64,000 nucleotides of DNA from an uncultured delta proteobacterium. GTDB taxonomy: Bacteria > Desulfobacterota > Binatia > UBA9968. The notes beneath the pieces were generated by a model. That model was given only the letters and a program-made list of their open reading frames with translations. It was not told the origin of the DNA and made no database searches. Position 1 is the first letter of the stretch. Every line of letters begins with the position of its first letter. Of the stretch, positions 1 through 47,347 are shown piece by piece. Both the position numbers and the translations under genes were made by a program. The stretch is taken from NCBI GenBank assembly GCA_963745835.1, contig CAVUZH010000019.1:384001-448000 (forward strand). Reading direction: 5' to 3'.

Positions 1-2
1 CG

Positions 3-395
3 ATGGAAGTTAGTAGCGCCGATCAATATGAGCGGGTATTCGATCAAACATTCAAGACGCGCGGCACCGGGTTGGCGGTACTGTCGAATGCATTAGCGGC
101 TTCTAGTCAGCAAACAATCGTTGATTTGGCGGCGAAACACCGGCTCGCGGCAATCTATTTTCGCAGGGAGTTTGTGGCTCTAGGTGGTTTGATGTCGTAC
201 GGACCGGATCAGACTGAGCGCTTCAGGCGCGCAGCCGCACTGATCGACAAAATCCTCAAGGGCGCAAAGCCCGCCGATCTCCCAATCGAGCAGCCGACCA
301 AATTCGAATTAGTGATCAATCTAAAAACAGCCAAGCAGATCGGCGTAACGATTCCGCCAAACGTGCTGGCGCGAGCGGACAGAGTGATTCGATAA
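3..395 (+). CDS. ABC_sub_bind SBP, 5' truncated by window edge
   Basis: [48 protein letters not shown]. Confidence 0.93.
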   Translation: MEVSSADQYERVFDQTFKTRGTGLAVLSNALAASSQQTIVDLAAKHRLAAIYFRREFVALGGLMSYGPDQTERFRRAAALIDKILKGAKPADLPIEQPTKFELVINLKTAKQIGVTIPPNVLARADRVIR

Positions 396-421
396 CGTGA
401 CGTGACGCAACGAGCAACAGT

Positions 422-1408
422 ATGCAAGCTTTGATTGCTGCCATTGCGGTGTGCGCGACATTGTCCGCGCCTGGCTCTCACGCCTCGGCGCAAACTGCGC
501 GTGGAGTTTACCGTCTCGGCTTTCTCTCCCCGTCTGGTACCCTCGAGCCTTCCATCCCGGGCACCGCAAACCTTGTCCCCAAGCTGCTGCGGGATTCCGG
601 CTATGTCGAAGGCCGAAACTTGGAAGTACAGCGCCGCTTCGCTGACGGCAGAATCGACCGTCTGCCACAATTGGCGAAGGAACTGGTCGATTTGCGCATG
701 GATGTAATTGTCGCCGTCAGCCCGACTGCCATCAAGCCTGCACTCGATGCGACCAAAACAATTCCCATCGTCATGGGATTCGGTAAGGATCCTGTCAGAG
801 ACGGATTCATCACCAGCCTTGCCAAACCCGGCGGAAACATAACGGGTGTCGTCGTTGCGCCCGAAGACGTGCTTGCAGGTAAGCGGTTGGAATTGATCAA
901 GGAGGCCGTCCCGCAGGCGGAGACCATCGCCCTTCTGGGGACAGGTGAGCCGAGCTCGCGATTGCAGGTTGAAGAGGCACAGAAAGTTGCGCCGGCGCTA
1001 AATGCGAAACTTCGAGTAGTTGAACTGCAGGACGGCGACTACGAGAAAGCCTTCCGGTTCATCGTGCAGGAGAAAGCCGGCGCCATGTTCGTGCTCGCAA
1101 GCCCAATCCTCAACGCAGGGCGCGATCGCATCATCGAACTCGCCGTGAAGCACCGTGTTCCGGCAATTTATGAGTGGCCGGAGCAAGCAGAGATCGGTGG
1201 TATGATGGCTTACGGCAGCAGTCTTGCAGCGTTATCACGGCGGGTGGCCTGGTACGTCGAGCGAATTCTGAAAGGGGCGAAACCCGGAGATCTCCCTGTG
1301 GAGCAACCGACGAAGTTCCAGTTGGTGATCAATCTCAAAACCGCCAACCAAATCGGTCTGACGATTCCACCGCACATTCTGGCGCGAGCGGATAGGGTGA
1401 TCAAATGA
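422..1408 (+). CDS. ABC_sub_bind SBP
   Basis: Signal peptide ending ASA-Q, family motifs, conserved tail. Confidence 0.95.
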   Translation: MQALIAAIAVCATLSAPGSHASAQTARGVYRLGFLSPSGTLEPSIPGTANLVPKLLRDSGYVEGRNLEVQRRFADGRIDRLPQLAKELVDLRMDVIVAVSPTAIKPALDATKTIPIVMGFGKDPVRDGFITSLAKPGGNITGVVVAPEDVLAGKRLELIKEAVPQAETIALLGTGEPSSRLQVEEAQKVAPALNAKLRVVELQDGDYEKAFRFIVQEKAGAMFVLASPILNAGRDRIIELAVKHRVPAIYEWPEQAEIGGMMAYGSSLAALSRRVAWYVERILKGAKPGDLPVEQPTKFQLVINLKTANQIGLTIPPHILARADRVIK

Positions 1409-1640
1409 GGCTGAGAGTCATTCAGGTCGTTATAGCTGTTCTGCTCTTTGCGCTTAGCTTTCCAGCCCAGGCGCAGCAGCTCAAGAGCGCCCTCGGATAG
1501 AATTCCTAACTATCTAGTCTCTTCTGTTTTTCCCAAGGGGCGCATTGTGCTTTTCGCAGCCGGCTATGCGAGCTTGAGTAGCTAGAGGGAAAGAACATTG
1601 CCATTGACATGGTGATATTCACAGACAAAACGGGATCGCT
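1405..1640 (+). pseudogene. Degraded N-terminal SBP fragment
   Basis: ATGA overlap; MRLRVIQVVIAVLLFALSFPAQAQQ then decayed RELG.EGKNIAI-like sequence; end approximate. Confidence 0.75.
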
Positions 1641-1904
1641 CCATTGTCAATCGCAAGACGGGCCAAGTAGTTGCTGTTCGTCGGACAGATCGAATTTCTG
1701 GAATGGACGCCGGACGATCACCTGAGACATCCACGATTTCCAACCTACGCAGCGATAAAGACCCGCACGTGATTATCCATGAGTAGCCGAATCAAGTCTG
1801 ATCTCCCCTGTTATCGAATTGCAACGCCTGAATGGCCTTTGGACGAAAAAAACCAGGTTTTCACGGGTTCCCTTTATAGCATACCCGTTGCCGTGGGACA
1901 GTGA

Positions 1905-2891
1905 TTGGTGAAGAAACAGCTCTCCTGGCTCGCCACGCCTCTACTGCTCGTCTGCCTTTCTTCCGTTGAGGCGCAGCAGCTCAAAAAAGCTCCTCGGCTC
2001 GGTTTTGTCGCCCTGAGTTCTTCAGTAGCCGGGGGAGGAAATCTCGAAGCGTTCCGCCAAGGACTTCGCGATTTGGGCTATTTCGAGGGCGATAATTTTT
2101 CGCTCGAGCCGCGTTGGGCTGATGGATGGGCAGAACGACTGCCCGGCATTCTCAACGATCTGATCCAGCAAAGAGTGGACATCATCGTGATTAGTAGTGC
2201 CGCCGGCGCGCTCGCGGCGAAAAAAGCGACCACGACGATTCCCGTCGTCTTTGCCGCAGTCACCGATCCTTTCGAGAATGGCCTTATCGCCAACCTGGCT
2301 CATCCGGGAGGCAACCTGACAGGAACCTCGTTAGCGGTTGGTGAGGGGTTTAGCGGTAAATGGGTAGAGTTTCTGAGAGAGGCTGTTCCGAAAGCTACCA
2401 GCTTTTCGGTGCTATGGAACCCGGGTCATCCCGTGGCGGCTGTGTTCGCCAGAGAGGCCGAATTGGCCGCTCGAGCTTTAGGTATCCGTCTGCGCTTTTT
2501 TGAAGCCCGTGATCCCAAGCATCTTGATACGGCACTTGCAAATATCGAAAGAGACCGCTCAGCGGCGCTCCTGGTAATCGCCGATCCCATTTTCTTCACT
2601 CAACGAAAGCTAATTGCGGACTTCGCAATCCGTCAGCGCTTACCGTCAACTTTCCTATTCAGAGAATTTGCCGAGGCGGGCGGCCTGATGTCTTACGGCC
2701 CGAGTATTACAGACTCTCACCGGCGTGCTGCCATATATGTGGACAAGATCCTGAAAGGCGCAAAGCCGAGCGATCTACCGGTGGAGCAGCCCACGAAGTA
2801 TGAGCTGGTCATAAACCTGAAAACAGCCACGCAGATCGGCGTAACGATTCCGCCCAACGTGCTGGCGCGAGCGGACAAAGTGATCAAATGA
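1905..2891 (+). CDS. ABC_sub_bind SBP
   Basis: VEAQQ signal cleavage site, family motifs, tail. Confidence 0.95.
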   Translation: MVKKQLSWLATPLLLVCLSSVEAQQLKKAPRLGFVALSSSVAGGGNLEAFRQGLRDLGYFEGDNFSLEPRWADGWAERLPGILNDLIQQRVDIIVISSAAGALAAKKATTTIPVVFAAVTDPFENGLIANLAHPGGNLTGTSLAVGEGFSGKWVEFLREAVPKATSFSVLWNPGHPVAAVFAREAELAARALGIRLRFFEARDPKHLDTALANIERDRSAALLVIADPIFFTQRKLIADFAIRQRLPSTFLFREFAEAGGLMSYGPSITDSHRRAAIYVDKILKGAKPSDLPVEQPTKYELVINLKTATQIGVTIPPNVLARADKVIK

Positions 2892-2990
2892 TTTCCGCCG
2901 GGAGAATCATTCGCTTTTTGCGCTAGGCGTTATGTTGTTGGTTATTAGCTTTTCAGCGCAGGCGCTGCAGCCTGAAGAGGCGTCCTAGGA
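2888..2990 (+). pseudogene. Signal-peptide-only SBP remnant
   Basis: ATGA overlap; frameshifted hydrophobic stretch ending FSAQALQP; end approximate. Confidence 0.55.
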
Positions 2991-3025
2991 ATGTGCGCAT
3001 CTGGGGCGGCATCCAATTCAGAAAT

Positions 3026-3232
3026 TCACTGGAAGTGGGCTATGACATGGGTCAGAAGATCGCCGCTTATCTGATCGATAACTCTCTCAAGCCGGTGCGT
3101 TGAAGAGGTTGCAACGGCTACGCCGCTGCGCCAGTACGTGATCTGCATCGCCGCGGGATCAGGATGAATAGCTAGACGTACTGAACTCGAGCTATATGGA
3201 GTCCGCCATTTCGAGCCATAGGCAGAGCGCAT
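3026..3232 (-). CDS. Small hypothetical protein (68 aa) or remnant, antisense cargo
   Basis: TAAGGAG Shine-Dalgarno 9 nt upstream of ATG 3232; no recognisable family. Confidence 0.35.
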   Translation of the reverse strand: MRSAYGSKWRTPYSSSSVRLAIHPDPAAMQITYWRSGVAVATSSTHRLERVIDQISGDLLTHVIAHFQ

Positions 3233-3274
3233 ACTCACCCACTCCTTAAGTATGCTAATCAATGCTGCCCGGCC

Positions 3275-3409
3275 GTGTTTCCGCCCAACGTTCTGACTTT
3301 CGCAGATAAAGTTTTGCGCTAGCCGAACGATCTAAAATCAAAATCAAAAATCTAAATCGCTAGGGTCGCGCCGAATGCGCTGGCGCGCACGAACAAGGTG
3401 CTCAGGTAA
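3275..3409 (+). repeat. Double orphan SBP tail with heptamer spacer (empty unit)
   Basis: VFPPNVLTFADKVLR* + ccgaacgatctaaaatcaaaatcaaaaatctaaatcg + PNALARTNKVLR*. Confidence 0.75.
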
Positions 3410-3414
3410 AACCG

Positions 3415-4392
3415 ATGAATGGAAAGCTCGCTTGGCTGATCGTTTTATGCCTCCTCGCATCTATCCAATTGGCGCAGGCACAGCCACGGATCTATTCGGT
3501 AGGACTCCTTTCACTCGGAACCACTGTCACTGCGGAGGTTCAAGGCTTGCGCGACGGTCTGAGGGCAGCCGGATACGTTGAGGGAAAGAATCTGATTTTT
3601 GATGTAGGAGTAGCGAAAACTTATGAGGAACTACGTCCGGTTGCGCAGTCTTTCGTAGAGAAGAATTTCGACGTCATTGTCAGTACCGGTGCATCCGCAC
3701 CGCTCATTGCCAAACAATCGACACAAATCATTCCGATCGTGTTTCTCGGTGGTGCCGACCCTGTTCAAGTAGGACTCGTTAAATCACTGGGACATCCCGG
3801 AGGGAACATCACTGGAATCGCTCGCTACAGGGACACTGAAATCTACGGAAAACGGCTTGAGGTTTTCAAGGAAGCTGTGCCGAATTTGCGAAGAGTCACT
3901 GTGCTTTACAATGCCCGCGGTGAAAATCCGACGCATTTCGCAAGCCTTAAATTGCTCCAAAAAATCGCACCGAGGCTGGGCGTCACGCTCATCGAAAAGC
4001 CGATCAAAACAGTCAGTGAAATGGAAAACGTTATTTCGGATATCTCCAGAGATATCATGGATGGTTTGTTCCCGATATGCGCCACGATGTTCAGGGATTT
4101 GACTAAGTATATGGCTGAGACGGCAAGTCAAAGAAAGGTTGCGTTGTTCGGTTGCAGCCCTCTTGTAGTGACGGATTTCGGGGCTCTGTTGTACTACGGT
4201 GCGGACAATTACCGAATGGGACAACGAGGTGCCTGGTACATTGACCGCCTTCTCAAAGGCGCCAAGCCGCAAGATCTGCCAGTAGAAATTCCGAGTTATT
4301 TCGAAATGATCGTAAATCTAAAAACTGCCAAGCAGCTCGGCCTAACGATTCCGCCCAACGTGCTGGCGCGAGCGGATCGAGTTATTAGATGA
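3415..4392 (+). CDS. ABC_sub_bind SBP (divergent)
   Basis: AQAQ signal site, family motifs, tail. Confidence 0.95.
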   Translation: MNGKLAWLIVLCLLASIQLAQAQPRIYSVGLLSLGTTVTAEVQGLRDGLRAAGYVEGKNLIFDVGVAKTYEELRPVAQSFVEKNFDVIVSTGASAPLIAKQSTQIIPIVFLGGADPVQVGLVKSLGHPGGNITGIARYRDTEIYGKRLEVFKEAVPNLRRVTVLYNARGENPTHFASLKLLQKIAPRLGVTLIEKPIKTVSEMENVISDISRDIMDGLFPICATMFRDLTKYMAETASQRKVALFGCSPLVVTDFGALLYYGADNYRMGQRGAWYIDRLLKGAKPQDLPVEIPSYFEMIVNLKTAKQLGLTIPPNVLARADRVIR

Positions 4393-5416
4393 AAGTAGTC
4401 GTGAGTGGTCAGCAGTCAGTCTCAAAAACGCATTTTGTTTAACGCTCAGCGCTTTGCTCGTTTCGCTTTCATAGCGGCGGCGGCGACGTAAGAATTCCCA
4501 CGGGTCGGCATCGCCACAGGCGATCGAGAAGAACGCCGAAGCAGCACGCATCGAGTTCCATCCGGCAGGCCTGCGCGAGATGGGGTATATCGAAGGAAAA
4601 AATATCTTGAGTGAATACCGATTTTATGGCGAACAATTTGAACGTATTCCCACAGTCGTAAACGAGCTCGTACAGAGCAAGGTAGACGTCCTCGTACTTG
4701 AGAAACTTCCGGGCTATTCGGGCAGCCAAAGAAGCGACCAAGACTGTCCCTATCGTTATGGTCACGACACAAAATCCCGTCGAGGCTAAGATCGTCGACA
4801 GTTTGGCACGGCCGGGAGGCAATATTACCGGGGCTAACGAGACTTACACCGAGATTTAAGCGGGAAGCGTCTTGGAGTTACTGAAGGAGGTGCTCCGGCG
4901 CGGCACTCGCGGGAATGGTCTCGGGACGTCAAGGCCCGATGCTGAGACATCAGGATCCGCCATCGCTTATCGTGAATATGAGGCCGCCGCCGGCCCTCTG
5001 AAGCGTTCAAGCTGCAATCTCTCGAGGTACGCGGACCCGAAACCTGACTTCAACCGTGTTCTCCAGGCGGCGAAGGGACGTGTCGATGCGCTGATGATTA
5101 TACATAACGCCTTCATAGTGAATTACCGTATGGAAATTGCCGACCTGGCGATTAAACATCGCTTGCCCAGTATAAATGAAGGTAGCGCATACGTCGAAGC
5201 TGGGGGCCTGATGTCGTATGCCACCAGCGACGTCGAACTTTACAGGCGCTCTGCGTGTGTACATCGATAAAATCCTAAAAGGCGCCAAGCCCGCGGAATT
5301 GCCGGTAGAGCAGCCGACAAAGTTCGAACTACTGATCAATCTGAAAACAGCCAAGCAGATCGGCCTAACCATTCCGCCAAACGTGTCTGGCAAGGGCGGA
5401 CAAGATAATTAAGTGA
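4389..5416 (+). pseudogene. SBP with multiple frameshifts
   Basis: Pieces in ORFs 4580..4789, 4872..5270, 5218..5412 reconstitute one SBP. Confidence 0.85.
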
Positions 5417-5738
5417 AAACGAGTACGAGGATCATTCAGCTTGTGTTCAGCACTATGCTCTTGGCCCTCGGCTTTGCCGCCCATGCCCAGCAGGCGGGTA
5501 AGATTAGCCGAATAGTTTACGTTTCGACGGCAGGCGATCCCAAGAATCCTAGATCTGAGAGAGAGGCATTCCAAGAAGGGTTACGGGATTTCGGCTATGT
5601 CGACGCGCCACGACCGCGCTCAAAAGTGTTCAGCCAACGGGAAACGTCGCGTTCACCATTGATCTCGATATTGTCAGGCAGATTGGCTTGACGACTCCGC
5701 CGAATGTCTTGGCGCGGGCGGATCGGGTATTCAAATGA
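5413..5738 (+). pseudogene. Internally deleted SBP (N-terminus joined to tail)
   Basis: MKTSTRII..AHAQQ..GLRDFGYV then, in another frame, [36 protein letters not shown]. Confidence 0.8.
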
Positions 5739-5783
5739 AAAAGCAAAAGTAAAAATTAAAAATGAACAAATAGCCATGGGGAC

Positions 5784-6761
5784 ATGAAGAAAAAAATCTC
5801 GGTCATTACTCTTATCGCCATGCTCCTTGGGCTTTGTTCAATCGCCAATGCGCAGCAGCAAGAAAAAATTCCACGGATAGGTTTTCTTTCCGTCGCTTCT
5901 ATTGCGTCTCTGTCGCCCCGGCTCGATGCCTTCCGGGAAGGACTGCAGAAGTTCGGTTATGTCGAAGGCAAAAACATCGCGTTTGAATACCGATCCGCCG
6001 AAGGAAAAACCGCTCGGTTGCCGGAGCTGGCGTCCGAGTTGGTTCGTCTCAAAGTCGATTGTATCGTGACGGCCGGGACGGTGCCGACTCGCGCTGCCAA
6101 GCAAGCCACCAATACAATCCCGATCGTGATGACAAGTCCCGGCAATCCTGTTCAGTCAGGGCTTGTTGTTAGTCTTGCACGCCCAGGCGGAAACCTAACG
6201 GGGGTGAGTTCGTTTTCCTCGGACTTGGCCGGCAAGCGGCTCGAGTTGCTCAAAGAAACTATTCCAAATCTTTCTCGGGTTGCTACTTTCTGGAACCTGA
6301 GCAGTACGGACCTCTTCCGCAAAGAGACCGAGCAGGCGGCGGAGTTGCTAAAAGTGCAGCTCGTAGCAATAGAAATTCGCAGTCTTGACGGTTTACAAGA
6401 CGCTTTCGGATCCCTTGCTAGGGAGCGTGCAAACGCTGCCATCATAGGCGGCGGCGGGTTTTTCGTCACTCACCAAACGAGAATGATCGAGTTGGCGACA
6501 AAGCACCGGATGCCGGCGATGTATCCGGAGCTGGAATTCGTGCTGGCCGGAGGCCTGATGACCTACGGAACTAGCGTTCCCGATCTGTACCGGCGTGCGG
6601 CGACGTACGTCGATAAGATCCTCAAAGGTGCAAAGCCCGCCGATCTGCCCGTTGAGCAACCAACGAAGTTCAAATTGATCATCAATTTATCAGCCGCCAA
6701 GCAGATCGATCTCGCGATTCCGCAGAAGGTGCTGGCGCGGGCGGATAGGGTGATTCGATGA
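5784..6761 (+). CDS. ABC_sub_bind SBP
   Basis: Intact ORF, signal peptide, motifs, tail. Confidence 0.95.
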   Translation: MKKKISVITLIAMLLGLCSIANAQQQEKIPRIGFLSVASIASLSPRLDAFREGLQKFGYVEGKNIAFEYRSAEGKTARLPELASELVRLKVDCIVTAGTVPTRAAKQATNTIPIVMTSPGNPVQSGLVVSLARPGGNLTGVSSFSSDLAGKRLELLKETIPNLSRVATFWNLSSTDLFRKETEQAAELLKVQLVAIEIRSLDGLQDAFGSLARERANAAIIGGGGFFVTHQTRMIELATKHRMPAMYPELEFVLAGGLMTYGTSVPDLYRRAATYVDKILKGAKPADLPVEQPTKFKLIINLSAAKQIDLAIPQKVLARADRVIR

Positions 6762-7829
6762 ACACGTGGAGTAATGGAGTGGTGGAGTCATGGAGTGGTG
6801 GGTCAATCCGGATGAAAGCAGTACTCCAATACTCCAACATTTCAATTCTCCGATTGAGATTGTGTCTTACCCTTTGCGCCATGCTCTTTGCACTTTGCGC
6901 GTCCGCCGAGGCGCAGCAGGCAAAGAAGATCCCGCGCATCGGATTCCTAGGTGCTGCCTCCGCTTCCGCCAACTCGGCGCGGCTCGAGGCATTCCGGCAA
7001 GGGTTGCGCGAGCTTGGCTATGCCGAGGGAAACAACATCATCATTGAATATCGATATGCAGACGGCAGACCCGAAGGTCCTCCCGACACTTGCAGCGGAA
7101 CTGGTCGGTCTCAATGTTAATGCCATCATTTCAGGTGGTGCAGCAGCAACCCGCCCCGCGAAGCAAGCAACCGCTACGATTCCCATTATAATGACAGGAG
7201 ATAACGACCCTGTTGGGTCTGGGTTCGTAGCTAACCTTGCGCGACCTGGAGGAAACGTTACTGGGTTGTCCACTCTTACGAATGAACTCAATGGAAAACG
7301 GCTGGAGCTTCTCAAGGAGATGATTCCTAGGCTCTCGCGCGTGGCCGTTCTGGGCGTTCCAAACACCCCGCGTAATGACAAAGCGTTAAACGAGACGGAA
7401 CTTGCCGCAGGCGCGCTCAGAATCCAGGTTCAATACCTCAACGTACTAAGCCGCGAAGATATTGAGAGTGCATTTCGAGAGGCAGGCAGTGGGCGCGCCG
7501 ACGCAGTCCTCTTGCTGGGCGGCTCGGTGTTTGTTCTTGAGCGAAGGCAGATTGCGGCGCTTGCGGTGAAGAGCCGACTCCCGACGATACATTACAGGCA
7601 GGAGTTTGTGGAAGACGGTGGGCTTATGAGCTATGCGACAAGCCTTGCCGACTTATCTCGGCGTGCTGCAATTTATGTAGACAAGATCCTGAAAGGCGCA
7701 AAACCCGCCGAGTTGCCCGTCGAGCAACCGACCAAGTTCGAGCTAGTGATCAATTTGCACGCGGCCAAGCAGATCGGCCTTAGGATTCCGCTGAACGTAC
7801 TGGCGCGGGCGGACAGGGTGATCAAATGA
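6758..7829 (+). pseudogene. SBP with one frameshift near 7075
   Basis: ORFs 6758..7120 and 6951..7829 join at YADGRP/LPTLAAEL; may be a sequencing error. Confidence 0.8.
6767..6846. repeat. TGGAGTNN octamer repeats with inverted ACTCCAAT arm (leader hairpin)
   Basis: tggagtaatggagtggtggagtcatggagtggtggg ... actccaatactccaac; related copy at ~27284-27355. Confidence 0.75.
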
Positions 7830-7830
7830 C

Positions 7831-7968
7831 ATTTTGGATTTTCGATTTTAGATTTTGGATTGAAAGCCGGAAAAGAACTGATGAACGCATTTTCTTCTAA
7901 GTCTCTTTCTGACAATCCAAAACCTGTCCTGAGCCGTGTCGAAGGGTCGGCAATCCCAAATCGAAAAT
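7831..7968. repeat. ATTTTNN / NNAAAAT heptamer inverted-repeat leader
   Basis: attttggattttcgattttagattttggattg ... caatccaaaa..caatcccaaatcgaaaat. Confidence 0.85.
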
Positions 7969-8962
7969 GGCTGGAGCTTTGGGTATTCATTTTGGTGCTC
8001 CTGCTGACCGGGGCTGTGGTTCAAGCGCAGCAGCCGGCAAAGATCCTTCGCATTGGGTTCCTGGATTCAAGTACTGCTTCTGGTAGCACGGTCCTCGTGG
8101 AGGCGTTCCGACAAGAGCTTAGCAACCTTGGTTGGATCGAGGGAAAGAATATCAGCGTCGAGTACCGATTTGCAGAGGGAAAACCTGGGCGGCTGCCTGA
8201 CCTTGCCGCGGACCTAGTTCGTCTTAAGGTTGATCTAATTGTGGTTTCGGGGGGGCCGACGCCGTTCGCGGCGAAGAAAGCAACTAGCACTATCCCCATC
8301 GTAATGGCGACCTCTACGGATCCAGTGGCTGCAGGTGTGGTTGCCAGTCTGGCTCGGCCGGGAGGAAATGTCACCGGTCTTTCGGGTTTATCGCCCGAAC
8401 TCGGCACCAAAAGGCTGGAGATACTCAAGGACGCAATTCCACAGCTGGTCCGAGTTGCGCTTCTGCGGCCGCCGGGAAATGACATAACTTCTATCATCAC
8501 CATCAGACATCCAAGTGAAGGAGCTCAGGTCTGCGGCGCCCGCACTAAAGCTAAAAATCGAGGAGATCGGGGCACAAGCTGACGCCAAAGGGTTAGAAAG
8601 CGGATTTCAAACCGCAAAGCAGAAGCAGGTAGGGGCGATTATGACAACAAGTGGTCGCACTTTTTTCGCCGAAAGAAAGCGGATCGTCGAGCTTGCCGGC
8701 AAATACCGGTTGCCGGCTATTTACCCGCAGAAGGAGTATGTTGACGCCGGCGGTCTCATGTCCTACGGGGCGGACATCGCTGACTCTATTTCGGCGCGCG
8801 GCTGGTTACGTGGACAAGATCTTGAAAGGCGCCAAGCCGGCTGATCTGCCGGTGCAGCAGGCGACAAAGTTTGAATTCGTCATCAACCTTAAAGCGGCAA
8901 AACAAATCGGTCTGACGATTCCGAACCGTGTGCTGGAGCGGGCGAATCAAGTGATTCGGTGA
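7881..8962 (+). pseudogene. SBP with two frameshifts
   Basis: ORFs 7860..8582, 8515..8844, 8651..8962; close paralog of 26111..27205. Confidence 0.82.
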
Positions 8963-8997
8963 GGCGTGAGCCGTGAGGCGTCAGGCGTCGGAGCAAG

Positions 8998-10038
8998 ATG
9001 GTCTTTAATCTAAAATCCAAAACCTGTACTGAGCGACGTCGAAGTATCCAAAATCTAAAATGGGTGGGGATTTTTGCAATCGTTCTCACGCTTGCGGCGT
9101 GGGGGACCAGGGCAGAGGCGCAGCAGCCAACAAAAATTCCGAGGGTAGGATATCTAACCCTCTCGCATCTTTCCGCAATCACCAACCGCACCGACGCATT
9201 TCGCCGAGGTCTGCGTGACCTTGGGTATGTCGAAGGGAAAAATATTGTCATCGAGTGGCGACCCGCAGAAGGAAAATTCGATCGTCTCGCCGCGCTCGCC
9301 GCCGAGCTTGTGCGGCTCAAGGTGGACGTTATCGTCACAGGTGGCGAGGCAGCAACCCGTCCCGCTAAGGAAGCCACCGCATTGATTCCCATCATCATGA
9401 CGCAGGACGACGATCCCGTTGGAGCTGGTTTTGTCGCGAGTCTCTCAAAACCGGGCGGGAATATTACTGGATTGTCCACGCTCGCGCCGGAGAGAAGCGC
9501 AAAGCGACTGGAGCTTTTGAAGGAAATCGTTCCCGGGCTCTCGCGTGTAGCTATCTTCGGTACTTCGACAGAACCGAACAATGCGCGAGAGTTAAAAGAG
9601 ATCGAAGTCGCCGCAGAGGCATTGGGAATTAAGCTTCAATACCGAGACGTACTAAGTCTCAAGGATGTTGAGATTGCGTTCAGAGCTGCGGTCAAGGACA
9701 GGGCTGGGGCAGTTCTAAAGAACGTGTCCGGCCCCATCACTAATGCTCACCGGAAAGAGATCGCAGAGCTCGCTATTAAGAGCAGGGTCCCAGTGATATA
9801 TGGCCGGCGAGAACCCGTCGAAGCCGGGGGGCTCATGTCATATGGCGTGAGCGTTGATGACTTGGACCGACGTGCTGCGATCTACGTGGACAAAATTCTC
9901 AAAGGCGCGAAGCCGGCCGATCTTCCCGTCGAGCAGCCGACAAAGTTCGAGCTGGTGATCAATCTGAAAGCTGCGAAGCAGATCGACCTAATGATTCCGC
10001 CCAACGTGCTGGCGCGGGCGGATAAGGTGATCAGATGA
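8998..10038 (+). CDS. ABC_sub_bind SBP
   Basis: Intact ORF; n-region derived from heptamer repeats (NLKSK..IQNLKW). Confidence 0.94.
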   Translation: MVFNLKSKTCTERRRSIQNLKWVGIFAIVLTLAAWGTRAEAQQPTKIPRVGYLTLSHLSAITNRTDAFRRGLRDLGYVEGKNIVIEWRPAEGKFDRLAALAAELVRLKVDVIVTGGEAATRPAKEATALIPIIMTQDDDPVGAGFVASLSKPGGNITGLSTLAPERSAKRLELLKEIVPGLSRVAIFGTSTEPNNARELKEIEVAAEALGIKLQYRDVLSLKDVEIAFRAAVKDRAGAVLKNVSGPITNAHRKEIAELAIKSRVPVIYGRREPVEAGGLMSYGVSVDDLDRRAAIYVDKILKGAKPADLPVEQPTKFELVINLKAAKQIDLMIPPNVLARADKVIR

Positions 10039-11030
10039 ACGTGTTGCGCAAACTCGTTTACTTCGCATCAGCCACTATGCTCTTAGGCTTCCGCACAGCG
10101 GAACCACAACAACCGACAAAAATACCGCGCATTGGTTACGTCTCCGGCACAGGCAACTCTACGGACCAGGGACCCTATGTCGAAGCACTGCGACAGGGGC
10201 TGCGAGATCTCGGTCATGTTGAAGGACGAAGCTTCGCAATCGAGTTTCGCGGCGCGGAGGGAAAGCTGGACCGTATTCACGGCATCATAAATGATCTCGT
10301 GAAACTTAAGGTCGATGTGCTCGTCGTCCCAATTCGAGCGGCAATTTTTTCTGCAAGGGAGGCGACCAATACCATTCCTATCGTCATGATAGCTGGTACA
10401 GATCCAGTTGCGGATGGGCTGGTCAATAGCTTGGCACGTCCAGGCGGGAATATCACCGGGCTTAGCACGCTTACCCGGGACTTAGGCGGAAAGCGGTTTG
10501 AATTGCTTGCAGAAGTGCTTCCGCAACTGTCGCGAGTCGGAGTACTCAACAAATCAGACGAACCATCCGCAGCTGCTGGTGTTTTCGAGCAGTATCGGAC
10601 TGCGGCGAACGCTCTGAAAATACAGATCCAATCTCTGGAAGTGCGCGGTCAGAATCCCGATTTGGAGGACGCATTCCGAACTGCGGTCAAGGGGCGCGTG
10701 AATGCGATGATCACAATCACGAGTGCCCCGCTTTTTCTACAGCGAAAGCGAATCGCCGATTTGGCAATAACGCACCGCCTACCGACGCTCTATCAAGGAA
10801 GTGCCTGGGTGGAAGCAGGTGGACTCATGTCCTATTCAATAAACGAGATCGAGGCTTTTCGTTATGCCGCGACCTATGTGGACAAAATATTGAAAGGTGC
10901 CAACCCCGCTGATTTACCGATCGAGCAGCCGACGAAGTTCGAATTCGTCATCAATCTGAAAGCCGCCAAACAGATCGGCCTCACGATTCCGCCAACGTGC
11001 TGGCGCGGGCGGATCAAAGTCATCAGATGA
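10035..11030 (+). CDS. ABC_sub_bind SBP (compensated -1/+1 indels in tail)
   Basis: Tail reads IPPTCWRGRIKVIR instead of [14 protein letters not shown]. Confidence 0.9.
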   Translation: MNVLRKLVYFASATMLLGFRTAEPQQPTKIPRIGYVSGTGNSTDQGPYVEALRQGLRDLGHVEGRSFAIEFRGAEGKLDRIHGIINDLVKLKVDVLVVPIRAAIFSAREATNTIPIVMIAGTDPVADGLVNSLARPGGNITGLSTLTRDLGGKRFELLAEVLPQLSRVGVLNKSDEPSAAAGVFEQYRTAANALKIQIQSLEVRGQNPDLEDAFRTAVKGRVNAMITITSAPLFLQRKRIADLAITHRLPTLYQGSAWVEAGGLMSYSINEIEAFRYAATYVDKILKGANPADLPIEQPTKFEFVINLKAAKQIGLTIPPTCWRGRIKVIR

Positions 11031-12066
11031 CAGAGATCAGAGGTCAGATGTCAGAGATCAGAAAGATCGACGCGACAGCAGATAACTAAAAAAATCATTC
11101 TTCTTTGCTCTATGCTCGCTGCTCCTTGCTTTGTGCTCTGCAGTCGATGCGCAGCAGCCAACAAAGATCCCACGGATAGGATACCTAAGTACAGTCTCCC
11201 CTGCCGTTAATGCCACTCGGATCGAAGCATTACGTCAGGGGCTGCGCGAGCTTGGATACGTTGAGGGAAAGAACATTCTCATTGAGTGGCGATATGCAGA
11301 GGGGAAAGTAGATCGCCTACCATCGCTTGCCGCGCAACTAGTGCATCTTAAAGTCGACCTCATCGTCACGGCTGCTTCGCCACCAACCCGTGCAGCCAAA
11401 GAATTAACTAGCACGATTCCCATCGTCATGGCATTCGACGATGATCCTGTTGGCTCGGGATTTGTCGCCAGCCTGGCCCGACCTGGAGGAAATATTACGG
11501 GTCTATCCAGTCTTGCGCTGGAGATAGGTGGAAAACAACTCGAGCTTTTGAAGGAGATCATTCCCCGACTCTCGCGCGTGGCCATTCTCGGAACTTCGAC
11601 CGTCCCTCAGTATGCAAATCTGGTAAAAGAGATTGACCTTGCGGCAAAAGCGGTGGGCGTGAAGGTTCAACATCTAGACGTGCTAAACGCCAGTGATATT
11701 GAGAACGCGTTTGGAGCCGCAAGCAAGGCGCTGGCGGGCGCAGTGCTGGTGATTGGGAGTCCCATTCTCAATTCTCACCGAACGCAGATTGTAGTACTCG
11801 CAGCAAAGAGTCGGTTTCCGGCCATATACAGCAGGCCAGAATACGTACAAGACGGCGGGCTTCTGTATTACGGCACCAGCTTCCCAGACTTATTCCACCG
11901 CGCCGCCACTTACGTGGACAAAATCTTGAAAGGCGCCAAACCCGGTGATCTCCCAGTTGAGCAGCCCACGAAATTCGAGCTGGTCATCAATTTGAAAAAC
12001 GCGAAGCAAATCGGCCTCACAATTCCGCCGCAGGTGCTGGCGCGGGCTGATCGAGTGATTCGATGA
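11027..12066 (+). CDS. ABC_sub_bind SBP, leader/signal peptide frame-disrupted
   Basis: Mature part intact in ORF 11131..12066; ATGA-coupled leader stops early. Confidence 0.82.
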
Positions 12067-12079
12067 AAGTAGTCGGTCA

Positions 12080-13081
12080 GTGTCAGTAGTCTCTAAAAAC
12101 GTACTTTGTTTAACGCTCAGCGCTTTGCTCATTGGGCTTTGCACGTCCGTGGGAGCGCACCAGGCGAAGAAAGTTCCGAGGCTTGGTTATATATCGGCAA
12201 CCGATCGCGCTACCGATGTCAGCCGCGCCCAAGCAATTCGCACGGGACTCCGCGATCTTGGTTATATAGAAGGACAGAACATTACGATCGAGTACCGCTA
12301 TGCCGAGGGAAAGCGCAATCGATATTCTGACCTTTTAGCCGACCTAGTTCATCTAAAGTTAGACGTCATTATAGTAGCCGGCGGAGACCCGCTGATTCGC
12401 GCGGCCATGAAGGTAACCACCACCATTCCCATCGTTATGACGGGTGGCGGCGCTGACCCGGTCGAGGCTGGGTTGGTTGAAAGCCTTGCTCATCCTGGCG
12501 GTAACGCCACCGGCATTACAAACGTCTCCACTGAATTAGGTGGGAAGCGGCTGGAACTGCTCAAAGAAATCGTGCCCAAACTCTCTCGTGTCGCGGTTCT
12601 TTATGATCCTGCACTTCCGGCCGGCGTAATCGACATGAAAGAGAATCTCCCAGCCGCGGCCCGGCAACTGAAACTAACTCTTCTCGCTTGGCAAATAGGA
12701 AGTGAGGAGGATTTCGAAAGAGCATTCGCTGGCGTGAACAAGGACCGTCCGGATGGACTCTACGTCCTCGGCGGCGCGCTTATTCGTGCTAAACGAAATC
12801 TTATTGCCCGCTTTGCGTTAAACAGCCGGTTGCCATCGACGTATTTCCAAAAAGAACCGGTAGATGCGGGCGGGCTCATGCACTACGGGGTGGACATGGA
12901 AGCTAGCTACCGGCGCGTCGCTTATTTCGTAGATAGGATTCTCAAAGGCGCTAAGCCAGCCGAATTACCGGTCGAACAGCCGACAAAGTTCGAGTTAATG
13001 ATCAATCTGAAAACCGCCAAGCAGATCGGCCTGACGATTCCCCAGAACGTGCTGGCGCGGGCGGACAAAGTCATAAAGTGA
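12080..13081 (+). CDS. ABC_sub_bind SBP
   Basis: Intact ORF, motifs, tail; leader resembles that at 4389. Confidence 0.93.
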   Translation: MSVVSKNVLCLTLSALLIGLCTSVGAHQAKKVPRLGYISATDRATDVSRAQAIRTGLRDLGYIEGQNITIEYRYAEGKRNRYSDLLADLVHLKLDVIIVAGGDPLIRAAMKVTTTIPIVMTGGGADPVEAGLVESLAHPGGNATGITNVSTELGGKRLELLKEIVPKLSRVAVLYDPALPAGVIDMKENLPAAARQLKLTLLAWQIGSEEDFERAFAGVNKDRPDGLYVLGGALIRAKRNLIARFALNSRLPSTYFQKEPVDAGGLMHYGVDMEASYRRVAYFVDRILKGAKPAELPVEQPTKFELMINLKTAKQIGLTIPQNVLARADKVIK

Positions 13082-14890: not shown

Positions 14891-14914
14891 AGTGGCAACG
14901 AAGAACAGACTGCC

Positions 14915-15203: not shown

Positions 15204-15243
15204 ATTTTGAATTTTCGAATTGCGGATTTTGGATTAAGCCGGG

Positions 15244-16388: not shown

Positions 16389-16392
16389 AGAA

Positions 16393-40775: not shown

Positions 40776-41809
40776 CCTCAGGTGATAAGCAGAAACCGGT
40801 TAGCAGAGAAAACTCGGAGCCCGATGGGATGATTAGAAGCATTGCTATCTGCCTAGTGATCACTGCTGTGCTGCCAGCTGTTTGCCTCGCCGAGGCGCTG
40901 CAGCAGGGGAAACGAGTGTACCGAATCGCGGTTCTGTCACCGGCCACACGGCCGCGGCCGGTCATCGACGCACTTCGACAAAGGTTACGAGAGCTCGGCT
41001 ATACGGAAAATCAAAACGTCGCGTTTGAAGATCGTTACGCCGAGTTTAAAATGGAACGTCTGCCAGAACTGGCTTCCGAGTTGGTCAAGCTCAGGCCCGA
41101 TGTCATCTTTACGCATTCGATGACCGGCGCAAGGGCGGCCAAGCAAGCCACTTCAACCATTCCAATAGTCATTGGAGCGGCCGGTGATCTGGTAACGGAC
41201 GGCATAGTCGCCAGCCTGGCGCGTCCAGGTGGAAACGTCACCGGCGTGACTTTGCTAAGCTCCGAGCTGGAAGGTAAAAGGCTCGAGCTTTTGAAGGAAA
41301 CATCCCGCAAACTCTCTCGCGTGGCGGTTTTAGTGAATGCGGCAAACTCCGCCTGGGAGAATTACCCGCAGGTTCTCGAGCCCGCTGGTCAGGCGCTCAA
41401 GTTGCGTCTCGAGCGCGTTGAAGTCAGGCAATCCGCCGAGTTCGAAGACGCGTTCGCCGCGATGCGTCGCAATGGAGTCGATGGCGTGCTGGTAGTCAGC
41501 GATCCCATGTTTCAAACTTATCAGAATCGCATCGCGGAGTTCGCGGCCAGGCAGCAACTGCCGAGCATTTCAGAAGTGCCGGGGTTCGCGGAGGCCGGCG
41601 GTCTGATCCAGTATGGGCTCAGCATTCACGAGATGGGGCGACAGGCAGCAGTGTATGTCGACAAGATCCTCAAGGGTGCACAGCCGGCGGATCTGCCGGT
41701 CGAGCGGCCGACAAAATTCGAATTCCTCATTAATCTGAAAACAGCTCGACAATTGGGTTTGACCCTGCCCCCGGCTATGCTGGCGCGGGCGGACAAGGTC
41801 ATAAAGTGA
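40772..41809 (+). CDS. ABC_sub_bind SBP, last of array
   Basis: GTGA-coupled, motifs, tail. Confidence 0.94.
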   Translation: MTSGDKQKPVSRENSEPDGMIRSIAICLVITAVLPAVCLAEALQQGKRVYRIAVLSPATRPRPVIDALRQRLRELGYTENQNVAFEDRYAEFKMERLPELASELVKLRPDVIFTHSMTGARAAKQATSTIPIVIGAAGDLVTDGIVASLARPGGNVTGVTLLSSELEGKRLELLKETSRKLSRVAVLVNAANSAWENYPQVLEPAGQALKLRLERVEVRQSAEFEDAFAAMRRNGVDGVLVVSDPMFQTYQNRIAEFAARQQLPSISEVPGFAEAGGLIQYGLSIHEMGRQAAVYVDKILKGAQPADLPVERPTKFEFLINLKTARQLGLTLPPAMLARADKVIK

Positions 41810-44350: not shown

Positions 44351-44719
44351 ATGGGAAAAAAGAAAAAAATACTTGTAGTCGATGACACTGAATTCAATCG
44401 CGATTTAGTGGTGCAACTGCTTGAAGACGAGTTTGAATTGATTATCGCCGAGGACGGCGCCCAAGGCCTCAAACAAACGCAATCCGAAAGGCCGGACCTC
44501 ATCTTGATGGATCTCGGCATGCCGATCATGGATGGCTGGGAAGCGACGCGCAAAATAAAAGCTAACGATGAGCTAAAGCATATTCCGATTATTGCCGTAA
44601 CATCCCATGCCATGGCGGGCGACGAAGTCGAGGCGCGCAAGGCCGGCTGCGATGATTATCTGCCGAAGCCTATCGATGAAGACGAATTGTTGAAAAAGAT
44701 CAGAAAATTTCTCGATTGA
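44351..44719 (+). CDS. Single-domain response regulator (DivK/CheY-like)
   Basis: VVDD, LILMDLGMPIMDG, IIAVTSHAM, PKPID. Confidence 0.92.
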   Translation: MGKKKKILVVDDTEFNRDLVVQLLEDEFELIIAEDGAQGLKQTQSERPDLILMDLGMPIMDGWEATRKIKANDELKHIPIIAVTSHAMAGDEVEARKAGCDDYLPKPIDEDELLKKIRKFLD

Positions 44720-44784
44720 TGCCTGAGTTGAGCCGAGCAGAAGCAACTCCCGATTAAATCGAAAACTGTAGAAGCGATACGCTC

Positions 44785-45873
44785 ATGACCAACAAAATTC
44801 TGATCGTCGACGACGAGCCATTCAATCTTGATCTGCTCGAGCAAGAGTTACAGGAGCAAGGTTACGAGATCGAAAGAGCCAGCGACGGCGCTGAGGCGCT
44901 CGAAAAACTGCCGGCCTTTGTACCGGATGTCGTGCTCCTCGATTACATGATGCCGAGGATGAACGGGCTGGAGGTTCTGAAGCGGCTTCGAGCCGACGAG
45001 AAATGGCGCAGTCTTCCGGTGATACTTCTCACGGCGAAGGCGGCGCAGGAAGATAAGATCACCGGTCTCGACGCCGGCGCCGACGATTACGTCATCAAGC
45101 CGTTCGATGCATTCGAGCTGTTGGCCAGAGTCCGTTCGATGCTGCGTATAAAAGAGCTGCACGATTCTTTGGAGGACCTGAACAAGACACTGGCTCAAAA
45201 AGTCGAACAACAGGTTGGCGAGATTGAGCGCATGAAGCGCCTGAAGCGATACTTTTCGCCGCAAATCGCCGATACTTTGATCGAGAGCAATGATGAGAGT
45301 TTGTTCAAAACCCACCGGCGCGAAATCACGGTGGTGTTCCTTGACCTGCGCGGCTTTACCGCGTTCTCCGATAGCGCCGAACCGGAAGAGGTGATGGAAT
45401 TGCTGCGAACCTATCACGCCGCAATGGGCAAGCTGGTTTTTAAATACGAAGGCACCCTCGAGCGCTTCGCCGGCGATGGCATCATGATCTTCTTCAATGA
45501 CCCGATAGTGTGCGACGATCATACCGAGCGGGCGATTCGTATGGCCCTCGAGATGCGTAGCCGAAGCACAGAGCTTCGCAGTGGCTGGATGAAGAAAGGT
45601 TACGATCTAGATTTGGGCATCGGCCTGGCCGCCAGCTATGCAACCTTGGGAAACATCGGCTTCGAGGGCCGCATGGATTACGGCGCGGTGGGTAACGTCA
45701 CCAATCTTGCGGCGCGCCTTTGCGACGAGGCCAAGGGCGGGCAGATCCTGACCAATCAGAGAACCTTGAGCAAAGTCGAAGACCTGGTCGAATTCGAAAC
45801 TTGCGAAGAGTTGCATCTCAAGGGCTTTAGCCGGGCCGTCGCTGCTTTCAATATAGTTAAGCTCAAATCGTGA
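44785..45873 (+). CDS. REC domain + class III nucleotidyl (adenylate/guanylate) cyclase
   Basis: N-terminal REC; VFLDLRGFT, FAGDG, GNVTNLAARL. Confidence 0.92.
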   Translation: MTNKILIVDDEPFNLDLLEQELQEQGYEIERASDGAEALEKLPAFVPDVVLLDYMMPRMNGLEVLKRLRADEKWRSLPVILLTAKAAQEDKITGLDAGADDYVIKPFDAFELLARVRSMLRIKELHDSLEDLNKTLAQKVEQQVGEIERMKRLKRYFSPQIADTLIESNDESLFKTHRREITVVFLDLRGFTAFSDSAEPEEVMELLRTYHAAMGKLVFKYEGTLERFAGDGIMIFFNDPIVCDDHTERAIRMALEMRSRSTELRSGWMKKGYDLDLGIGLAASYATLGNIGFEGRMDYGAVGNVTNLAARLCDEAKGGQILTNQRTLSKVEDLVEFETCEELHLKGFSRAVAAFNIVKLKS

Positions 45874-45999
45874 ACGACCAATACCAATCGAGCTCAGCGT
45901 GGAGACTCACTTTAAAAATATCCTTCCGTCCGCTTTCCGTAGCGAGAACTTGACGTTCTTCCCAGCCCGACCCTACAATCCAGCCGTCCGATATCCGCA

Positions 46000-47347
46000 A
46001 TGGCACATAGAATTTTACTCGTCGATGACGAGCCCTTTAACTTAGACCTGCTGGAGCAAGAGTTAGCGGATCAGGGCCATTCGATTGCAACCTGCGCCAG
46101 TGGCGAGGAGGCTCTGGAGAAGTTGCCCGGATTTCAACCCGATTTGATTCTGCTCGACTACATGATGCCCGGGATGAATGGTCTGGAAGTGCTAAAAGAA
46201 ATCCGGCGAAAAGGTCTCGACACTCCGGTGGTCATCATCACCGCCCATGGTACCATCGAGCGGGCGGTAGAGACGATGAAGGAGGGCGCCGAAGATTTTC
46301 TTACCAAGCCGTTCGATCCTGATCATCTCGCTATCGTAGTCAAGAAAGGCGCTGGAGCGGACCCGGCTTCGTGAAGAAGTAGAAATTCTTTCCGAACAGC
46401 TCGACGCTCGCTTTAAGATGGTTCAGGGCAAAAGCCTGTCGATGGCGCGGGCGGTCAGTGAGGCCCAAAAAGCCGCGGTCAGCAAGTCCACGGTTCTGCT
46501 GCTCGGCGAGAGCGGCACCGGCAAGGAAATTTTTGCCAGAGCAATCCACAATTGGAGTCAAAGAAAATCAGCGCCGTTTATACCGATCAATTGCGTAGGC
46601 CTTTCCAAAGATCTTTTGGAAAGCGAGCTGTTCGGTCATGAGAAAGGCGCATTTACCGGCGCGCACCAGTTAAAGAAAGGAAGAGTCGAGCTAGCCGACG
46701 GTGGAACGATTTTTCTTGACGAGGTTGGCGATATCTCCCCGGAGCTTCAAGCCAAGCTTCTGAGGTTTTTACAAGAGCGCGAGTTCGAGCGCGTCGGCGG
46801 AACACACCAGATCAGCGTGGATGTGAGAATCGTTGCGGCAACCAACCGCAATATCGACAAAGCGGTGAGCGATGGCACGTTTCGTGAGGATCTCTATCAT
46901 CGGCTAAACGTCATTCCGATCATCCTCACCCCGCTTCGGGAACGCCGTGAAGACATCTCCGAGCTGGCAGCCCATTTCTTACAGCGATTTTCTATTGAAA
47001 CCAAGAAGCTATTTTCGGGAATCAACGCCGATGCGGACGCAACTCTCATGGCCTACGGTTGGCCCGGGAATGTGCGCGAGTTAGCTAATGTAATCGAGCG
47101 CGCAGTAGTTCTCGGAGACGGTCCCCTTCTGACCATTGACCTGCTGCCGGCGCGCATCGCCGGTCTAAAGCCAACCTATACAACTGCCGAAGCTAAATCC
47201 TATCACGATACAATCAATCATCACCGGCGCGATCTGATCCTGAAGGCGCTGTCTGAGGCCGGTGGCAATCGCGCAGCCGCTGCCAAGGCTCTCGGATTGC
47301 ACAGAACTCATCTACTGAAGCTGATCAAAGCTTTACAGCTCGGCTAG
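46000..47347 (+). pseudogene. NtrC-family sigma54-dependent response regulator with one +1 frameshift (~46346)
   Basis: REC in 46000..46374; AAA+ ([18 protein letters not shown]) and Fis-HTH in 46418..47347; removing one A from aagaaaggcg restores [13 protein letters not shown]. Confidence 0.85.

Follow-up and report, generated by a model that had tools for sequence, protein, structure and literature searches.

Analysis of a 64,000-nt stretch of DNA (C19:384001-448000, hereafter the window) from the 7.28-Mb, 25-contig genome of an uncultured soil bacterium (Candidatus Binatia) revealed a tandem array of genes coding for substrate-binding proteins (SBPs) of family PF04392 (ABC_sub_bind), the last of which lies immediately upstream of the gene for a membrane sensor histidine kinase. 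The inspection of other genomes showed the conserved unit to be a two-gene module, in which one PF04392 SBP gene immediately precedes that of a sensor arranged as TM-dCache-TM-HAMP (TM, transmembrane segment); this finding is firm. We put at roughly 0.5 the probability that the SBPs of this PF04392 subfamily are ligand-binding co-receptors for membrane sensors, rather than parts of ABC importers, and that their genes form an array evolving by birth and death. The parts of this reading differ in strength. The last SBP of the array is probably a functional partner of the kinase, the two forming a co-receptor pair similar to LuxP-LuxQ; that many of the array SBPs signal through the kinase is proposed more tentatively.

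The array extends from C19:380563 to C19:425809 (∼45.2 kb) and holds ∼37 diversified, exported SBPs in all. Positions 1..41809 of the window belong to it; its left end lies 3.4 kb outside the window and adds three intact genes, including one cut by the window edge. All the SBP-type open reading frames (ORFs) in the window ORF list (∼311-422 amino acids, aa) are on the + strand. A peptide pattern for their C-terminal tail gave 33 matches in the window, again all on the + strand, and a profile built from the final 55 columns of the alignment matched 40 times on the + strand and never on the − strand. The profile matches were resolved into 32 complete tails, three partial or frameshifted tails and three short remnants. 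The 35 tails counted belong to 27 intact genes (26 wholly inside the window and one edge-cut) and to eight broken copies or remnants. The seven SBP ORFs submitted to Pfam were all assigned to PF04392 (E-values of 1e-42 to 1e-55; 146-189 bits, the cut-off being 25.9), covering the profile from positions 11-22 to 292-293 of its 293 positions. A signal-peptide-like hydrophobic N-terminus, mostly followed by an A-x-A-Q-Q-type motif, was present in 24 of the 26 intact genes, as judged by a hydropathy heuristic and not by a trained predictor. A profile search detected no PF02653 permease on the whole of contig C19, and the scanned ORFs of the window and of the adjoining 14.5 kb on its left side included no ABC ATPase. 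The initial annotation, made from the window alone, had described about 34 co-oriented SBP paralogs spanning at least 42 kb and lacking both permease and ATPase; the counts given above agree with this, and neither a permease nor an ATPase gene lies at the left end of the array. The genes at its right end are the following:

40772..41809, + strand, last SBP, adjacent to the kinase
41841-44243, + strand, sensor histidine kinase (800 aa) with dCache_1, HAMP, GAF, HisKA and HATPase_c domains, 31 bp past the last SBP
44351-44719, + strand, single-domain REC protein (Pfam)
44785-45873, + strand, REC domain fused to a class III adenylate/guanylate cyclase domain (Pfam)
46000..47347, + strand, NtrC-type sigma54 activator (REC, 46000-46374; sigma54-AAA+/HTH_8, 46418-47347)

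Hydropathy placed the TM segments of the kinase at residues ∼24-47 and 305-328, enclosing a periplasmic dCache region (∼48-303; Pfam dCache_1, 52-287). Pfam also confirmed the gene order that had been read from the sequence, namely a kinase 31 bp beyond the array followed by a REC protein, a REC-cyclase and an NtrC-like activator. The two ORFs of the activator are one gene split by a 1-nt insertion (window 46340-46420), which is a single ORF of 448-450 aa in L022 and L023.

A tblastn search with the periplasmic part of the kinase identified four paralogs in this genome (100, 55, 32 and 29% identity). All four have a PF04392 gene directly upstream, two of these SBP genes being frameshifted. In 22 relatives, two unpublished genomes being excluded, 52 loci coding for kinase homologs were surveyed; 50 were informative, the other two being short of upstream sequence. 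A co-oriented SBP gene ended less than 400 nt upstream of the kinase in 38 of the 50 informative loci, and at 470-1470 nt in another six. Kinases of low identity (27-36%, ∼975 aa) were preceded by one SBP, whose frame reached or slightly passed the estimated kinase start; those of the high-identity class often had at least two SBPs upstream. In a 7-contig genome from another family, six SBP genes and a 267-aa ORF precede an 805-aa kinase of like architecture. Outside the order, an SBP lies immediately 5′ of the sensor in one metagenome-assembled genome (MAG), in a Pyrinomonadaceae (Acidobacteriota) MAG and in a Rokubacteria MAG. In plasmid pRL11 of Rhizobium ruizarguesonis (L108:4959-7755), a PF04392 SBP gene and the gene for a dCache_1-HAMP-cyclase protein overlap by 17 nt. 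This SBP shares 38% identity with the last SBP of the array, and the first 330 residues of the cyclase protein are 34% identical to the kinase N-terminus (E-value 1e-43). An SBP and a cyclase were annotated as a pair under the match in 10 of the 25 plasmid records listed. In Rhizobium the input module is still accompanied by its SBP, the output domain having changed from kinase to cyclase. The overlaps of 1-17 nt seen in many of the pairs suggest translational coupling. The proposed link between the array and the kinase is thus conserved in relatives, in the paralogs of this genome and in other phyla, but the conserved part is one SBP beside the sensor, not the whole array.

Complex prediction was performed with residues 48-303 of the kinase (67-row alignment) and residues 43-345 of the last SBP (116-row alignment). 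The median score was 0.66 (runs of 0.54, 0.67 and 0.66), and the best of three controls scored 0.00. This mark was attained by 116 of 157 solved complexes and by 2 of 215 mismatched pairs, counts that are only rough here since our own alignments were used. The runs had at least 90% of their contacts in common, with a pLDDT of at least 87 for the partner. The model therefore supports, but does not show, binding of the SBP to the kinase. The predicted interface on the SBP (residues 141, 148-151, 162-172, 204-209, 298-316, 335 and 338-339) is made up of an SLARPGGN loop, a GKRLELLKE helix and the C-terminal tail ending in ...AR. Among 60 full-length array-type paralogs, its 29 positions showed an entropy of 1.02 bits versus 1.77 at the other 269 (permutation p of 5e-5); with the tail left out, the values were 1.27 and 1.95 bits (p = 0.004). 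The array paralogs matched the array consensus at a median of 23.5 of the 29 positions (range 14-27) and the last SBP at 26. The match dropped to 11 for the SBP paired with a class-B kinase, to 12 for a singleton SBP located beside a CHASE2-cyclase, and to 5 and 7 for the two halves of the SBP of the transporter operon on contig C23. On the kinase side, the predicted interface was better preserved than the remaining periplasmic domain wherever an SBP is adjacent: it was kept at 26 of 27 positions in 59 homologs (periplasmic identity of 0.80), and at 24 and 20 of 27 in more distant loci (identities of 0.60 and 0.55). Rokubacteria kinases without an adjacent SBP kept 12 of 27 positions at an identity of 0.45, the interface being no better kept than the rest. 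In the Rhizobium pair, 16 of 29 positions are kept in the SBP (0.40 overall) and 13 of 27 in the sensor (0.36 overall).

Conservation among the SBP paralogs is highest over their last ∼55 residues. The mean frequency of the commonest residue among the 60 paralogs was 0.77-0.88 over the last ∼44 alignment columns versus 0.39-0.72 elsewhere, and pairwise identity was 0.76 for the tails against 0.42 for the bodies (body range 27-82%), so the nearly invariant C-terminal ∼50 aa and the variable bodies noticed at the outset hold over the enlarged set. Synonymous codon identity was 0.46-0.48 in the tail and 0.32-0.42 in the body; this barely raised value indicates that the tail is held mainly at the protein level. 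Gene conversion was considered as the source of the invariant tail and was rejected on the same grounds. The idea that the tail is a docking element was supported only in part: the predicted interface with the dCache domain does cover positions invariant among paralogs, tail included, but the general tail motif is family-wide and occurs in transporter-linked homologs too. That the tail is unique to this array was rejected as well, only the identity of the interface residues being specific to the subfamily.

The AlphaFold2 model of the last SBP (pLDDT of 91.7) showed a class-I fold with two lobes. Its best Foldseek matches were 3LKV, 3LFT and 6HNI/6HNJ (E-values of 1e-23 to 1e-24; target-normalised TM-scores of 0.82-0.85). 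The ligands of the PF04392 proteins characterised so far are Trp, Tyr or Phe (PMC10443332); the initial annotation had likewise described them as aromatic amino-acid SBPs. In CD0873, Glu-263 and Tyr-279 are reported to determine specificity, as are the equivalent positions in VC_1101 and SP1069 (PMC6816091). These positions align with V269 and I285 of the last SBP and carry 15 and 14 different residues, respectively, among the 60 paralogs; this hypervariability speaks against identical ligand pockets in all of them. The ligand identities of the array SBPs themselves are inferred.

The genome contains 133 PF04392 matches. A profile made from 23 window genes detected 152 ORFs genome-wide, 69 of which cover more than 85% of the profile and 60 of which are full-length and of array type. 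Besides singletons, arrays were found on contigs C19, C3 (∼24 kb), C22 (∼21 kb), C24, C14 (two) and C13, and no permease flanks any of them. Nine PF02653 permeases were counted. Eight are arranged as four LivHM-type pairs, accompanied in at least one case by a Peripla_BP_6 SBP; the remaining one, on C23, belongs to the only canonical operon of the genome, where it is encoded together with a double PF04392 protein, a STAS protein and an ATPase. About 60 array-type SBPs thus stand against one canonical operon. In a set of 41 genomes (this one and 40 relatives, which as kin are not independent), PF04392 was present in 29, among them all 24 further members of the family to which this genome belongs and 4 of the 5 genomes from a second family; it was found in none of the 11 from a third. 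Many relatives had at least 43 matches (the range in the genus is 1 to at least 43, versus 133 here), and many of the SBP-bearing genomes had at least 30 at a completeness of at least 95%. A homolog of the C23 permease (E ≤ 1e-10) was found in 2 of the 41 genomes and one of the N-terminal 335 residues of the kinase (E ≤ 1e-15) in 27. Both SBP and kinase occurred in 27 genomes, the SBP only in two, the kinase only in none, and neither in 12; of the SBP-only genomes, one is 82% complete and the other has a single weak match, and 11 of the 12 genomes with neither belong to one genus. These tallies include two unpublished genomes (G012 and G018), without which the counts are 27 of 39 for the SBP, 2 of 39 for the permease and 25 of 39 for the kinase; nothing else reported here depends on these two.

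These data bear on an alternative in which only the kinase-adjacent SBP is a co-receptor and the others are orphan uptake SBPs sharing a distant transporter, either the COG4120/COG1101-type one on C23 or a LivHM-type one. The canonical operon and the four LivHM-type pairs would provide such a transporter, the tail motif is common to transporter-linked solved homologs, and the lineage of the last SBP is conserved while the remaining array turns over. The pattern would resemble that of the Bug/TctC proteins, or of multiple OppA paralogs served by one permease. Characterised members of the family are aromatic amino-acid uptake SBPs (PMC10443332; PMC6816091). Nevertheless, the C23-type permease is rare among genomes in which the SBPs are common, no permease lies near any array, the kinase-adjacent SBP falls inside the array clade, and the transporter-operon SBP shares far fewer predicted docking positions with the array consensus than the array paralogs do. 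We consider this alternative unlikely.

If the SBPs are co-receptors, an SBP would hold its ligand, a small molecule, in the cleft separating the two lobes and would dock onto the periplasmic dCache domain of the kinase via the loop, helix and tail named above. Docking would alter kinase autophosphorylation, and the signal would pass from the kinase to the single-domain REC protein, to the REC-cyclase (cyclic-nucleotide output) and to the NtrC-type sigma54 activator (transcription output). The ∼35 other paralogs of the array, and those of other arrays, would keep the docking surface and, as seems most likely, would present different ligands to the same one or two class-A kinases. The use of the kinase by array members is suggested by their shared predicted docking surface, diversified pockets and missing transporter. 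The initial annotation had many SBPs signalling through one or a few sensors: the SBP-sensor linkage and the variable pocket agree with this, but since one SBP is conserved beside the sensor, one of at least six arrays lies by the kinase and the tail is family-wide, 'many SBPs, one sensor' is something that we infer. It is possible, though somewhat doubtful, that the whole constitutes a chemoreceptor repertoire, with dozens of SBPs of diverse pockets and one docking surface serving few dCache sensors, and with recombination at the tails reshuffling the set between relatives.

Several observations weigh against the co-receptor reading. No SBP was found inside ∼2.4 kb at 6 of the 50 informative kinase loci, nor within 10 kb at four Rokubacteria/Methylomirabilota kinase loci. 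Only one of the at least six arrays of this genome adjoins a dCache kinase; the others end in REC and Tad genes, in multi-GAF kinases or in transposases. Only the last SBP is kept beside the kinase, the upstream genes being replaced wholesale in a close relative (L024), whose 7.6 kb upstream of the shared segment has no counterpart of at least 150 nt anywhere in this genome, save for short stretches of ∼80% identity. Of the 35 copies, eight are broken; if the breaks are not assembly errors, this is consistent with relaxed selection on individual members. The general tail motif is also present in the transporter-linked 3LFT and 3LKV, and 6HNI shows most of it, so its invariance may be partly structural (hinge strand, lobe packing). 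As to the complex model, the predictor may favour conserved surfaces, and a solved SBP-sensor complex exists for LuxP-LuxQ, so that the passing score may partly reflect likeness to such complexes. The sigma54 promoter consensus TGGCAC-N5-TTGC, searched with one mismatch, was not enriched in the window (4 matches versus 4.67 expected), although the targets of the activator may lie outside it. Finally, three Pseudomonas aeruginosa SBPs encoded beside sensor kinases were reported not to activate them (Cerna-Vargas and Krell, PMC11113362).

Some of these points would also fit adjacency without binding, in which the dCache domain senses its ligand directly and the SBPs sequester, buffer or scavenge, or act without a shared partner. 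Small ligands are commonly bound directly by dCache domains, and the wide copy-number range in the genus, together with the 133 matches here, would suit dispensable genes; the P. aeruginosa result and the five of at least six arrays that are not beside such a kinase point the same way. Yet the linkage persists at kinase identities of 27-99%, across phyla and across the change of output domain, and the gene overlaps suggest translational coupling. In addition, the predicted interface is conserved above background on both partners and the complex prediction passed with controls at 0.00. Adjacency without binding is thus rather improbable.

What is known of SBP-dependent sensing comes from a few one-to-one pairs. 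In LuxP-LuxQ of Vibrio, the SBP is the sensor of AI-2 and docks on the kinase, with one LuxP per LuxQ. The pair described here resembles it in that a transporter-less class-I SBP gene lies beside a membrane histidine kinase with a tandem-PAS/dCache-like periplasmic part. It differs in that the SBP is of PF04392 and not ribose-binding-like as LuxP, in that the kinase has HAMP and GAF domains, and in that dozens of SBP paralogs keep the predicted docking surface, binding being predicted only. SBP-dependent activation of a sensor is also found in TorT-TorS, ChvE-VirA and XylFII-LytS, and in Tar and Trg with the maltose-, ribose- and galactose-binding proteins (MBP, RBP and GBP); Trg accepts two different SBPs, a small-scale many-to-one case. 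These SBPs are encoded by single genes outside arrays, do not belong to PF04392 and act on other sensor domains, and ChvE, MBP, RBP and GBP also serve transporters. The Bug/TctC proteins (PF03401) of Bordetella and relatives comprise dozens of orphan SBPs for one or two cognate transporters, and one member, BctC, is reported to communicate with a sensor kinase, BctE. They are of another SBP family and transporter class, and their genes are mostly scattered, whereas the arrays described here are co-oriented over 20-45 kb; we know of no shared sensor-adjacent module described for them. The array SBPs share family, fold and C-terminal motif with CD0873 (6HNI, Tyr), VC_1101 (3LKV, Phe), SP1069 (3LFT, Trp) and TrpX of Streptococcus suis. 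These four serve in the import of aromatic amino acids, and their genes are accompanied by those of a permease and an ATPase, which are missing beside the array genes. The array SBPs also vary at both specificity positions and differ from the transporter-linked SBP of their own genome at 22-24 of the 29 predicted docking positions. A full-text literature search, with subscription journals outside its coverage, found no work on PF04392 arrays or on a PF04392-dCache module.

The module of PF04392 SBP and dCache-HAMP sensor spans uncultured Binatia, Rokubacteria and Acidobacteriota as well as cultivable Rhizobium, and accounts for kinase-adjacent members of the big class annotated as 'ABC transporter substrate-binding protein', often transporter-less. 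If the arrays act as a repertoire, many more annotated SBPs that lack a transporter would be explained. At E ≤ 0.001, PF04392 comprises 133,916 cluster representatives, a number that falls to 13,439 at E ≤ 1e-30; given the size of the latter subfamily and its presence in several phyla, the repertoire reading, if true, would imply a widespread and unstudied mode of sensing in soil bacteria. Sensory range would then be widened by amplifying the receptor rather than the kinase, one cascade integrating a wide chemical space, and biosensor design could draw on the arrays as a natural collection of binding proteins that share one constant scaffold. A genetically tractable counterpart, in which the core claim is testable, exists in the pRL11 pair of Rhizobium.

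The right end of the array is common to four assemblies (87.8-96% nucleotide identity), in one of which, L024, the identity is 96% across window positions 40608-54229. The synteny break at 40608 coincides with the first base of the tail of the penultimate SBP gene, and tail remnants sit beside complete genes elsewhere in the array. This arrangement fits unequal recombination at the tails, as judged from sequence; array members would be gained and lost through such events in the conserved segment coding for the tail. A separate series of orthologs (64-90% identity) exists for the last SBP, which is 36-49% identical to its paralogs in the window. In a tree it is nested inside the array clade, where genes from different arrays are intermixed. 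A cassette-type variation, in which silent upstream donors recombine via the tail into one expressed kinase-adjacent locus, could account for the break exactly at the tail start, for the tail remnants adjoining complete genes and for the breakage of about a quarter of the copies. It was rejected as very improbable: the kinase-adjacent locus is not variable, as its orthologs and its nucleotide identity in the four relatives show, 24 of the 26 intact copies are equipped with a start and a signal peptide of their own, and synonymous sites between paralogs are near saturation, hence there was no recent conversion. Nor is the array likely to any appreciable degree to be an assembly artefact or the product of a chimeric bin. 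The bin has an estimated contamination of 9.3% and the assembly carries indel errors, but the paralog bodies are too different from one another to come from collapsed or duplicated reads, base composition is even over the window, the right end recurs in four independent assemblies, and arrays occur in other genomes, including the six SBPs before the kinase in the 7-contig genome.

Upstream of the last SBP, the array is composed as follows:

3..395 (gene C19:383376-384395), + strand, 3′ part of the edge-cut intact SBP gene
422-1408, 1905-2891 and 3415-4392, + strand, three intact SBP genes
4580..5735, + strand, broken SBP copy in several frames (truncated tail 5257-5385, tail remnant 5631-5735)
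5784..6761, + strand, intact SBP gene
6758-7829 (two frames) and 7860-8962 (three frames), + strand, two frameshifted SBP copies, the breaks being real or assembly indels
8998-10038, 10035-11030, 11131-12066, 12080-13081 and 13078-14091, + strand, five intact SBP genes, several with 4-bp overlaps (last ∼12 residues altered in 10035-11030; no signal peptide in 11131-12066 as called)
15036..16296, + strand, tail remnant (15036-15146), then a fragmented SBP with a frameshifted tail (16133-16296)
16393-17382, 17406-18458 and 18455-19444, + strand, three intact SBP genes
19525-19770 and 19767-20153, + strand, Phd/YefM-like antitoxin and PIN-domain toxin, inserted within the array
20122..21434, + strand, fragmented SBP copy with a complete tail (21267-21431); fragment 20122-20334 is on the − strand
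21431..22459, + strand, intact SBP gene; after it, a short remnant of a tail end (22499-22543)
22580..23580, + strand, fragmented SBP copy in three frames
23692-24471, − strand, 259-aa ORF interrupting the array, with no family assigned
24846-26114, 26111-27205, 27275-28348, 28385-29380, 29420-30490, 30498-31490 and 31529-32530, + strand, seven intact SBP genes (the called N-terminus of the first includes a tail remnant, 24879-24993)
32534..33531, + strand, frameshifted SBP in three frames, with a complete tail
33573..34613, + strand, intact SBP gene
34658..36295, + strand, protein of 545 aa encoded within the array, with a hydrophobic segment at its N-terminus and TPR repeats in its C-terminal part
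36481-37488, 37512-38510, 38592-39578 and 39807-40775, + strand, four intact SBP genes, the tail of the last one beginning at 40608

The left flank of the array contains an AI-2E-family transporter gene on the opposite strand, a thioredoxin-TPR gene and metabolic genes. Among the flanking genes, PutA (L001:5861-8819) is split in the same assembly as the NtrC-type gene; in a related assembly, L024, it is the kinase gene that is split (L024:8832-11235). These three splits indicate that such assemblies carry indel errors, which look like long-read assembly errors; some of the 'broken' SBPs may thus be indel artefacts, the true number of broken copies is uncertain, and pseudogene counts in these MAGs are unreliable.

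An intergenic palindrome of ∼110 nt, formed by (GATTTTN)3-4, a ∼55-nt conserved spacer and (AAAATCN)3-4, was found between SBP genes (example at 17385..17495). Its copies lie, approximately, at the following positions:

7830-7940, palindrome copy
15205-15330, palindrome copy
17385-17495, palindrome copy
24995-25100, palindrome copy
26115-26225, palindrome copy
33530-33645, palindrome copy

A 12-mer of the palindrome had 28 matches in the window versus 0.63 expected, and 46 of its 77 matches genome-wide were at most 600 bp from SBP ORFs. The element folds as a long hairpin (-34.2 kcal/mol; z of -3.7), and an Rfam scan of the window, palindrome included, assigned no family. It is a REP/MITE-like palindromic element, and its presence indicates that the called N-termini of several SBP ORFs are too long.

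Four sequencing runs contained ∼5-6% of the words sampled. Short contigs from two soil metatranscriptome libraries matched the last SBP and the kinase at ∼93-99%, DNA carry-over being possible; no contig from these two libraries spans 41809-41841, and they therefore provide no evidence bearing on co-transcription.

Genes associated with the other arrays were also recorded. The C22 array contains a PIN gene too (L005:103-705). An ECF sigma factor, a DUF2275 membrane protein and a DUF4139 protein are encoded before both the C22 array (L004:10225-13708) and the C24 array (L006:8532-11906), and may constitute a dedicated regulator of these two arrays. Very large multi-GAF histidine kinases, each in several ORFs, follow the C22 array (L005:6884-13104) and the C13 singleton (L015:2441-10706); they lack the dCache domain of the window kinase. 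Elsewhere on C19 (L019:5747-9370; 185.7-189.4 kb), the gene of a diverged singleton SBP is arranged head-to-head with a FecR-TPR gene and ORFs for CHASE2 and cyclase. In the C23 operon (L017:2439-7445), the double SBP is a tandem protein of 661 aa, and the STAS-domain protein (412 aa) is encoded between the SBP and the permease. Among 120 longer homologs listed, mostly tandem double SBPs of ∼650 aa, there was no fusion of an SBP to a histidine kinase. Double (∼650 aa) and quadruple (∼1250 aa) PF04392 forms are common in metagenomes, which also contain fusions of PF04392 to a Ser/Thr protein kinase (P0107, 760 aa) and to PQQ repeats (P0105, 981 aa).

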